Below are positions 48,275 to 50,405 of a stretch of 64,000 bases of DNA, in pieces. Source of the stretch: Escherichia phage WPEC5; sequence record PV654397.1; one strand, 5' to 3'. Numbering within the stretch: position 1 is the stretch's first letter; every line of letters starts with the position of its first letter. Made by a program: the position numbers and the translations under genes. Below the pieces are notes generated by a model, which was given only the letters and a program-made list of their open reading frames with translations, was not told where the DNA came from and ran no database searches.

Positions 48275-48595
48275 TTATAAAATTACTTCACCAAAAATGC
48301 CATTGATATCACGTTCAATGATGTATTCACCTTCATGTTCTTCTAAGAACTTTTTAATGGCTTCATTAACTTTAGGACGATGCATGTTGTTGAATGTTTC
48401 AGTACATCCGTCACCTTTTTCATAATAACCACTTTTGTGATGTGGATTACCGCAGAACGCAATTGTATGTGTAATACGTTCTAACTCAGCAGCAAGATGC
48501 CCCCCATTGTCTTTGTTAAAGAAAATGGAAATTTCATTTTTCCAAAATACTTCAACTTGATATATTTTTTTAAAAGAACTATTAATGCGTTTCAA
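48275..48595 (-). CDS. C-terminal domain of repeat-protein gene (track start is an in-frame TTG)
   Basis: Frame stays open upstream through one repeat unit (..VTIIDPDFGEFQITPNAFLRGQGHP..) until the inverted segment near 48776. Confidence 0.45.
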   Translation of the reverse strand: MKRINSSFKKIYQVEVFWKNEISIFFNKDNGGHLAAELERITHTIAFCGNPHHKSGYYEKGDGCTETFNNMHRPKVNEAIKKFLEEHEGEYIIERDINGIFGEVIL

Positions 48596-48775
48596 ACGCT
48601 TATCGTTATCACCTGCAATACCGGCTTTATCTGATTCATTATATACATCGTTATGTATATAATAATAAGCTGTTTTGTCTTTTTTAAAACCACTTGGTGT
48701 TCTGTTCGGATGTCCTTGTCCTCGAAGGAATGCATTAGGTGTAATCTGAAACTCACCGAAATCAGGATCAATTAT

Positions 48776-49078
48776 AGTTACATCTAAAAAAACAACAGAA
48801 CAATTTATTAAAGACGCGAAAGAAAAAAGAACTGATATTGATTTTGAATATAGTAAAGTTCTTTTTAAGTGGTAGTGGGCATCCTATCCGTGGTGGTTCA
48901 TCTAAAAAAACAACAGAACAATTTATTAAAGACGCGAAAGAAAAAAGAACTGATATTGATTTTGAATATAGTAAAGGTAAAGCCAATTATATTAATGCAT
49001 ATACAAAAGTAACTATAATTGATCCTGATTTCGGTGAGTTTCAGATTACACCTAATGCATTCCTTCGAGGACAAGGAG
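48776..49078 (+). repeat. inverted segment of the repeat array
   Basis: Same repeat unit encoded on plus strand here, on minus strand on both sides; junctions fall inside repeat units. Confidence 0.6.
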
Positions 49079-49477
49079 AACTCACCATATTCAGGATCTA
49101 TAACAGTTACTTTTGTTTTGTTATTAACATAGTTAACTTTACTATATTCAAAATCAATATCAGTTCTTTTTTCTTTCGCGTCTTTAATAAATTGTTCTGT
49201 TGTTTTTTTAGTTCGGATGTCCTTGTCCTCGAAGGAATGCATTAGGTGTAATCTGAAACTCACCGAAATCAGGATCAATTATAGTTACTTTTGTATTTGG
49301 CTTTACTATAATCATAATTAATATCAGTTCTTTTTTCCTTTCCTTCAGTGACGAATTGCTCTGTGGTTTTCGATTGTAATTTAATCTGGTCTTCAATTGC
49401 TCGTTTCGGATGTCCTTGTCCTCGAAGGAATGCATTAGGTGTAATCTGAAACTCACCGAAATCAGGATCAATTATAG

Positions 49478-49774
49478 TTACTTGGCTTTACTATAATCAT
49501 AATTAATATCAGTTCTTTTTTCCTTTCCTTCAGTGACGAATTGCTCTGTGGTTTTCGAACGTAATTTAATATTTTTTTGAATTGCTCGTTTCGGATGTCC
49601 TTGTCCTCGAAGGAATGCACTAGGTGTAATCTGAAACTCACCGAAATCAGGATCAATTATAGTTACTTTTGTATGTGCACTAACATAATCAACTTTACTA
49701 TAATCATAATTAATATCAGTTCTTTTTTCCTTTCCTTCAGCGACAAATTGTTCTGTGGTTTTTTTAACAGACAT
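49478..49774 (-). CDS. repeat-protein N-terminal fragment (98 aa ORF)
   Basis: ATG with GGAAAGGGG SD; two repeat units then frame break. Confidence 0.4.
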   Translation of the reverse strand: MSVKKTTEQFVAEGKEKRTDINYDYSKVDYVSAHTKVTIIDPDFGEFQITPSAFLRGQGHPKRAIQKNIKLRSKTTEQFVTEGKEKRTDINYDYSKAK

Positions 49775-50003
49775 TACTTAAAACCCCTTTCCAGTACTGA
49801 ACCCGTCCAGCACCATTAATCTTAGCTTGAATCTTATCTTTTTCGACAAGACCTTCTTTGAAATCAATGGAAGTATTATCGCACTGAATTACATCTAAGT
49901 CAAGTACTTCTTGTGTACTTAATGAAGTATTGTCTGCAATTTGTTGTAAAGTAATGATATCAGTACCGAAGAATTCTGCTAATCGTATAAAAGATAGTTT
50001 CAT
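49764..50003 (-). CDS. hypothetical protein (79 aa)
   Basis: ORF; fused terminator/promoter module upstream (~50015-50066). Confidence 0.5.
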   Translation of the reverse strand: MKLSFIRLAEFFGTDIITLQQIADNTSLSTQEVLDLDVIQCDNTSIDFKEGLVEKDKIQAKINGAGRVQYWKGVLSNVC

Positions 50004-50017
50004 GTATTACCTCTTGA

Positions 50018-50066
50018 GTTGATGAAATAATTATAGCAAAAAGGGCTGACCGAAGTCAACCCTTTT
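50018..50066 (-). promoter_or_regulatory. fused terminator/promoter module (type C)
   Basis: GGGTTGACTTCGGTCAGCCC hairpin, TTTTTGC, TATAAT, TATTTCATCAAC. Confidence 0.55.
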
Positions 50067-50072
50067 TATGTG

Positions 50073-50405
50073 CTATTGTTTTACACCACCCCACTTTTCA
50101 TAGATCGATAAAATTTTTTCTAAATTAGTGATTGTAGTTGTTTCTGTATATCCATCTGGCATTTCTTTTTTAGACAAGATACCATTACCAAATAGTCTCT
50201 TGCATTCTTTTTCTGCTTCCTTACAATTTATCACAGTTGGGAAACTATATACACAAATTAGTTTTACTTTAAATAATGATTTTTTATTTTGTTGCTTAAC
50301 ACGTTTTCCTTTTTGTTTTTCAATACCATATTTTAAAGCAATAGGTAAATCGTTGTCTGAAATAATGTTAACATATGCATATTGCTGGGAATAACCTGCA
50401 CGCAA
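50073..50405 (-). CDS. C-terminal domain following repeat array (110 aa ORF)
   Basis: ORF; homologous to the 48275-48595 tail (YAYVNIISDN.. vs AYYYIHNDV.., GYTETTTI vs GCTETFNNM). Confidence 0.4.
   Translation of the reverse strand: MRAGYSQQYAYVNIISDNDLPIALKYGIEKQKGKRVKQQNKKSLFKVKLICVYSFPTVINCKEAEKECKRLFGNGILSKKEMPDGYTETTTITNLEKILSIYEKWGGVKQ

Follow-up and report, generated by a model that had tools for sequence, protein, structure and literature searches.

Two repeat-bearing genes of Escherichia phage WPEC5 with C-terminal domains of probable GIY-YIG nuclease type

The DNA analyzed here is a stretch of 64,000 nucleotides from Escherichia phage WPEC5 (sequence record PV654397.1), referred to below as the window. 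It contains two genes on the minus strand, located between a gene similar to denV of phage T4 (52160-52597) and an AAA-ATPase gene (47436-48206), in which arrays of repeats are followed by C-terminal domains designated tail A and tail B. Gene A (51860 to 50073) encodes tandem repeats of approximately 65 amino acids ahead of tail A, and gene B (49774 to 48275) encodes a second type of repeat ahead of tail B. Both tails are probably catalytic-type GIY-YIG nuclease domains of the T5orf172/MUG113 branch, located at the C-terminus of free-standing genes resembling those of homing endonucleases, with the repeats acting as the DNA-recognition part and the broken reading frames of this record arising as assembly errors. 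The domain and the architecture have already been described, and the window genes are further members of that class; two jumbo-phage genes that were unannotated or vaguely annotated thereby find a place in a known class of selfish nuclease genes. An earlier note made from the sequence alone had proposed that the repeats are followed by a GIY-YIG-like nuclease domain, and the proposal is supported by family membership, by fold matches and by a conserved Arg and Glu.

Family membership, predicted fold and conserved residues

Tail A comprises 113 amino acids (GHPLRAGYSQQYAYVNII...GGVKQ*) encoded from 50414 to 50076 on the minus strand, with its stop codon at 50075-50073, and is a T5orf172/MUG113-like domain of the GIY-YIG superfamily. 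Tail B comprises 146 amino acids (GHPNRTPSGFKKDKTAYYYIHND...GEVIL*; minus strand, 48715 to 48278, stop codon 48277-48275) and is a divergent member of the same domain family that has additional residues inserted past strand 3 and an extended C-terminus (..EHEGEYIIERDINGIFGEVIL). Each tail follows the last '..GEF..TP..FLRG.GHP' repeat. Both peptide strings quoted in the earlier note are present exactly in a three-frame reading of the minus strand; the span given for them there, 48275-50405, also takes in the gene B repeat region and a 79-residue open reading frame (ORF).

The homology of the two tails, also claimed in that note, is confirmed by profile methods. Compared directly with each other by pairwise BLASTP, the tails give no significant match (E = 0.31), and profiles were therefore needed. 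Both tails find their match in one and the same C-terminal section of phrog_681, named 'endonuclease' (E 1.3e-27 for tail A and 2.2e-15 for tail B), and hhalign comparison of the two family alignments returns a probability of 91% (E 9e-7). In a joint alignment of 13 diverse homologues, with columns numbered according to tail A, the residues Y14, G30, R38, E68, D87, G88, E91 and T92 are invariant and K28 is nearly so. These sequence comparisons indicate that the tails are related beyond chance, with tail B being a rarer, divergent sub-branch of the tail A domain family; the tail B type was found in only 8 phage records.

Tail A has at least 549 cluster-representative homologues at E ≤ 1e-3 in a library of 1.84 billion proteins. 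Among 54 members of this family, 23 match T5orf172 (E ≤ 0.01) and 15 match MUG113; one further Pfam family is matched by a single member and is regarded as spurious. T5orf172 is a subfamily of GIY-YIG (PMC10448857). By tblastn, tail A shares 39-45% identity with phAPEC8-like 'endonucleases' and with ICP1 tcgB/Gp130. The ICP1 protein, which is annotated as a 'putative homing endonuclease' and is 39% identical to tail A, matches both CapR and T5orf172 above the gathering cut-off (21.2 bits for T5orf172 against a cut-off of 20). Searches for homologous proteins with tail A, a mixed alignment and the tail B alignment returned only P0001 and P0002, and scans of IMG/VR for both tails found no relatives. 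In P0002, an independent relative, the repeat-to-tail B junction is as in gene B and is in frame.

The AlphaFold2 model of tail A, built on a 54-sequence alignment, has a predicted local distance difference test score (pLDDT) of 89.5, a predicted template modelling score (pTM) of 0.80 and a β-β-α-β-α-...-α layout. It is predicted to contain the GIY-YIG core, a three-stranded sheet with flanking helices in the order β-β-α-β-α, and its fold matches are SLX1-type GIY-YIG nucleases first, followed by other GIY-YIG domains including I-TevI. The model of tail B, which rests on two tail B-type sequences together with tail A family sequences, is weaker than that of tail A and returns the same top three fold matches. 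Structure prediction, suggested in the earlier note as a check, thus came out in favor of the GIY-YIG fold, for tail B through its weaker model. In BFVD the tail A model matches many phage proteins at template modelling scores (TM-scores) of 0.8-0.95, several of them from RaK2-like jumbo phages, and the names of these matches include CapR-homology, zinc-ribbon, GIY-YIG, 'T5 Orf172 DNA-binding' and homing endonuclease. A different explanation, to which the older name 'T5 Orf172 DNA-binding domain' would point, is that the tails are non-catalytic DNA-binding domains that share with GIY-YIG enzymes only a small α/β fold. This is very improbable, and the residues conserved in both tails include the Arg and Glu positions of GIY-YIG nucleases.

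The earlier note likened the spacing of Y-Y-I, (Y/A)GI and the basic residues after them to the GIY..YIG..R signature of GIY-YIG nucleases. The Tyr, Gly and Arg positions of this pattern are indeed conserved, and its second Tyr is replaced by Lys. Specifically, the Tyr of the first motif ('GIY', strand 1) is invariant as Y14 in tail A (codon 50375-50373) and Y19 in tail B (codon 48661-48659). In the second motif ('YIG', strand 2) the Gly is invariant (G30, codon 50327-50325; G32 in tail B), and the Tyr position is occupied by an invariant Lys (K28, codon 50333-50331; K30 in tail B, which aligns with K28 in the joint alignments). A second motif of the form K-x-G is typical of T5orf172 domains. 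The Arg of helix 1 (R38, codon 50303-50301; R40) and the Glu that opens the helix following strand 3 (E68, codon 50213-50211; E79), a position that in GIY-YIG nucleases is catalytic and binds metal, are also invariant. The helix-1 position four residues past the Arg is a Gln (Q42) in tail A, where GIY-YIG enzymes have His or Tyr. Overall, Y14, K28, G30, R38, E68, D87, G88 and E91 are invariant over the 54 tail A family sequences, and Y19, G32, R40, E79, D102, G103, E106 and T107 are invariant in the tail B family. The search for a catalytic Glu and Asn downstream, suggested in the same note, succeeded in part: the Glu is invariant, and no clear equivalent of the I-TevI Asn (N90) was found among the 54 sequences. 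The corresponding region holds an invariant D-G-x-T-E-T motif (D87-G88-x-x-E91-T92, codons 50156-50139; D102-G103-x-x-E106-T107 in tail B). When the family profile was compared with PDB sequences, the best match was the UPF0213 protein 1zg2, which is not significant (E 0.078); the weak alignment pairs Y14, G30, R38 and E68 with motif residues of 1zg2. We take UPF0213, the family of 1zg2, to be of GIY-YIG type.

Domain order and the cysteine-less repeats

The order of the domains, with repeats first and the nuclease-like domain last, had been considered atypical for homing endonucleases. That view is not correct here, as 149 of the best 150 tail A relatives have the domain at their C-terminus, with a median of 216 residues ahead of it, and the architecture has been published (PMC10448857). 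The order is atypical relative to I-TevI/Seg-type enzymes only: in I-TevI and the T4 Seg proteins an N-terminal GIY-YIG domain is joined through a linker to a C-terminal DNA-binding domain, and the window genes reverse this layout. Among T5orf172 homing endonuclease genes, 87% carry CapR/DUF723/DUF4379-type zinc-finger modules, often repeated like 'beads on a string', and these genes recombine between their repeats and are located at boundaries of genetic exchange (PMC10448857). In the window genes the nuclease domain likewise stands C-terminal to modules of the CapR/DUF723/DUF4379 type, save that the zinc ligands of the modules are replaced.

The closest known systems are the T5orf172-type putative homing endonucleases (ICP1 TcgB/Gp130, Gp165 and Gp174; phAPEC8 gp013, annotated 'endonuclease'; Barth, Dunham & Seed 2023, PMC10448857). 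The window genes share with them a C-terminal T5orf172-like domain, at the tail A identities given above, following one to several N-terminal modules. Further common features are recombination-prone repeat DNA and a free-standing location in variable spots between conserved phage genes. In contrast to those genes, the window repeats are without all four zinc ligands and are undetected by the Pfam CapR/DUF4379 models, the repeats are unusually alike (exact DNA repeats exceed 100 nucleotides in the related phage Turkey3), and tail B, with its insertion and extended C-terminus, represents a rare divergent sub-branch. ICP1 Odn (Gp88; PMC8263062) also possesses a C-terminal nuclease domain of the same kind, whose K-x-G, Arg and Glu (E180) align with K28/G30, R38 and E68, and the E180A change abolishes Odn cleavage (PMC8263062). 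However, the sequence similarity between Odn and the window tails is very weak, and Odn is an origin-directed protein with an anti-satellite defense role that carries an N-terminal RepA_N domain, derived from the satellite, instead of a repeat array. Compared with the classical GIY-YIG enzymes (I-TevI, T4 Seg and SLX1), the tails have Lys in place of the second-motif Tyr and Q42 in place of the helix-1 His or Tyr, and identity is 8-17%. The PLE CapR repressor contains a DNA-binding module of the same family as the window repeat units; it differs in that it acts as a repressor and requires its four cysteines for DNA binding (PMC8096241).

The gene A repeat region extends over 50415..51860 on the minus strand, with the ATG at 51860, and contains about nine whole or partial units of approximately 65 amino acids with the pattern KKTTEQFIKDAKEKRTDIDF.YSKV.Y.N..TKVT.IDPE.GEF..TP..FL.G.GHP.R. 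The gene B repeat region (48716..49774, minus strand, ATG at 49774) has the unit pattern KTTEQFVTEGKEKRTDINYDYSKA.YI.AHTKVTIIDPDFGEFQITP.AFLRGQGHP. The repeat units are homologous to Cys-containing modules of the CapR/DUF4379 type (hhalign 98.3%, E 1.4e-14), and the four ligand positions, which are C, H, C and C in those modules, are occupied here by D, F/Y, H and R. The Pfam CapR/DUF4379 models give no match to the window repeats. Only 5 of 141 family members have no CxxC motif ahead of the tail, and because intact ORFs with between two and five repeats free of cysteine are among these members, they form a real small clade. Cysteine-less repeat units were also seen in P0003, P0004, P0010 and P0011. 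The loss of the zinc ligands is the only unusual feature of these genes.

Differences between units are concentrated at unit positions 31-32, 46, 50-51 and 60. It is conceivable that the repeats form a zinc-independent, modular DNA-recognition array in which every one of the nearly identical units recognizes a short segment of DNA via the hypervariable positions 31-32, 46 and 50-51. Such an array would amount to a 'beads on a string' code loosely like that of transcription activator-like effectors, coupled to a GIY-YIG-type cutter, and recombination could reshuffle the arrays and so retarget the nuclease. This idea is speculative and decidedly unlikely to be right. If a zinc-ligand-free array does bind DNA, it would be a variant recognition module, and this is the part of the system with wider interest.

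Several observations weigh against assigning the tails as nuclease domains of this class. The profile search recommended in the earlier note found T5orf172 and MUG113 matches among the relatives, and the window tails themselves do not reach the Pfam cut-offs. Tail A reaches 17.4-18.1 bits on MUG113 (PF13455), below the gathering cut-off of 22.3, and has no match to T5orf172 (PF10544); tail B has no Pfam match at all, and in NCBIfam neither tail has a match. As neither tail reaches a Pfam gathering score, the link to Pfam is transitive, via homologues. The placement of E68 opposite a known catalytic Glu rests on weak alignments, namely that with 1zg2 and a HMMER alignment of 2.2 bits that sets it opposite Odn E180, and hhalign comparisons of the family alignments with the single Odn sequence are uninformative (probabilities of 3% and 0.1%). 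No target site can be inferred for these proteins. A CapR mutant in which the four cysteines are changed to serine does not bind DNA (PMC8096241), and given the loss of zinc ligands in the window units, DNA binding by these repeats is consequently unproven. Finally, the assembly as it stands joins neither tail in frame to a full-length gene.

Broken reading frames

Gene A contains frame breaks near 51173 and 50524 and in-frame deletions of units near 51626 and 50736, and gene B contains frame breaks near 49482, 49296 and 49211 together with three inverted repeat pieces within 49077-48785. Taken as given, multiple frame breaks and an inverted block would suit true pseudogenes, that is, decaying remnants of homing endonuclease genes that were scrambled by recombination between their own repeats and whose tails are no longer made in functional proteins. 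Intragenic recombination between repeats is documented in such genes (PMC10448857). Nevertheless, this explanation is quite unlikely, as the position of the breaks points elsewhere. A search of 48200-52000 identified 24 maximal exact repeats of 77-79 nucleotides (14 direct and 10 inverted) and none longer, and each anomaly is located where such a repeat ends (51626, 51173, 50736, 50524, 49482, 49296, 49211, 49077, 48976, 48899, 48860 and 48781). This is the mark to be expected of a k = 77 de Bruijn path and not of natural recombination; short-read assemblers commonly use 77 as their largest k-mer size.

The gene A homologue of Turkey3, XMR01473.1, is intact (432 amino acids, five repeats) and its tail is 100% identical to tail A. 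It contains exact repeats of 116 and 134 nucleotides, which could not be resolved by such an assembler, and it has no inverted repeats and no excess of 77-nucleotide repeats. Related assemblies also break at this point: in four sister assemblies a contig of approximately 350 kb ends exactly at the junction between tail A and the repeats, and two GenBank records break there too. The tail sequences themselves are without defects. Because all of the breaks lie at the ends of 77-79-nucleotide repeats with none longer, the Turkey3 repeats are longer and the sister contigs end there, the broken frames most likely represent k = 77 de Bruijn graph assembly errors rather than true pseudogenes. Users of this sequence should not take the apparent pseudogenes at face value, as the repeat region is very probably mis-assembled.

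Mobility context and neighboring features

The window belongs to an E. coli jumbo phage of the PBECO4/121Q group (Asteriusvirus, RaK2-like). The genes flanking the locus are up to 98-99% identical to those of fEgEco12, Turkey3 and other phages, and the locus itself is present sporadically among these close relatives. In fEgEco12, whose flanks are 98.6% identical, the whole 3.7-kb two-gene block is absent and a single copy of a 33-nucleotide cassette (described below) stands at that point. Turkey3 has different genes after its intact gene A, tail B-type genes occupy the same spot in PBECO4, 121Q and Turkey5, and four NCBI assemblies have gene A followed either by a CapR-T5orf172 gene or by an unannotated ORF of 547 amino acids. 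PBECO4 gp306 and 121Q gp221 are intact homologues of gene B. Most of the different genes found at this spot in Turkey3, Turkey5, PBECO4, 121Q and the four NCBI assemblies are T5orf172-tailed. This pattern of presence, absence and gene replacement fits a hot spot for putative selfish nuclease genes.

The observations cover homology, predicted fold, conserved residues, domain order and the presence/absence polymorphism of the block, and DNA cleavage, the target site and mobility are inferred. A mechanism can be proposed. The repeat array would bind a specific DNA site, and the tethered C-terminal domain would cut nearby DNA with the help of a metal ion and of the conserved Tyr, Lys, Arg and Glu. 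When a relative without the gene is present in the same infected cell, repair of the break by recombination would transfer the nuclease gene, along with its flanks, to the genome of that relative. The 3.7-kb accessory block made up of the two genes, with a separate stem-loop/promoter cassette ahead of each, occupies a variable spot between denV and the AAA-ATPase gene.

Alternatively, the two genes could be domesticated derivatives rather than active homing endonucleases, functioning as a sequence-specific DNA-binding regulator (as do the satellite protein CapR, or I-TevI as a repressor) or as a defense or counter-defense nuclease directed at a competitor such as a satellite or co-infecting phage (as does ICP1 Odn). 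The fold would be unchanged and the biological role would be other than self-propagation. There is precedent, as T5orf172-related genes have been co-opted at least twice, in the CapR repressor (PMC8096241) and in the anti-satellite nuclease Odn (PMC8263062), and homing cannot be inferred from sequence alone (PMC10448857). The cysteine-less repeats also suggest altered DNA-binding properties. On the other hand, neither tail has lost any of the conserved catalytic-type residues, which speaks against a role confined to binding, and presence/absence together with replacement by other nuclease genes at one locus fits selfish mobility. Domestication is accordingly judged unlikely, and the genes are treated here as putative homing endonuclease genes.

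The 33-nucleotide cassette (GGGTTGACTTCGGTCRGCCCTTTTTGCTATAAT) consists of a GC-rich stem-loop and a near-consensus sigma-70 promoter (11/12 match, extended -10). There are five copies in the window, where none is expected by chance, all on the minus strand, and they bracket each accessory gene module. The copy at 51903..51935, a stem-loop with a sigma-70-like promoter (GGGTTGACTTCGGTCAGCCCTTTTTGCTATAAT), is upstream of gene A; that at 50030..50062 is between gene A and the module formed by the 79-residue ORF and gene B; and that at 48235..48267, the sole copy present in fEgEco12, follows gene B and precedes the AAA-ATPase gene. Further copies are located at 52626-52658 and 56922-56954. The cassette presumably resembles the promoter-stem-loop cassettes proposed for module shuffling in T4-type phages.

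The 79-residue ORF (49764..50003, minus strand; phrog_34150, E 3e-55) is just upstream of gene B and overlaps its start. In every relative that possesses a second nuclease gene, the ORF is conserved in front of that gene; a homologue occurs in this position in Turkey3, PBECO4, 121Q and the four NCBI assemblies, whatever gene follows. The 547-residue ORF is found at the gene B position in GCA_036253035.1 (L013, 691-2334) and in two sister assemblies. It has no match in Pfam or NCBIfam. Its C-terminus (..RYDFYVPDYNLIIEVDGAQH..) bears a possible resemblance to DUF559/Vsr-like endonuclease motifs.

The last ~130 nucleotides of the tail B gene (48275-48410) are almost identical in DNA sequence to PBECO4 (L003) and 121Q (L011), the rest of the tail B domain is much more diverged from both, and the sequences differ again past the stop codon. 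This looks like a recombination boundary inside the tail B nuclease gene.

Elsewhere in the window, a weak profile match at 61891-62115 ('EGYTETY') falls in an ORF of 74 amino acids whose N-terminus is hydrophobic and signal-like; after examination the match was put down to chance. On the minus strand at 44929-47368, seven ORFs of 104-123 amino acids in a row encode hydrophobic, membrane-protein-like products; they appear to be a tandem array of paralogues, with conserved counterparts g573-g579 in fEgEco12. At approximately 21-22 kb the GC skew switches sign, from -0.09 to +0.2, and it becomes negative again at approximately 43-44 kb, where the change coincides with the switch to minus-strand genes from approximately 44.9 kb.

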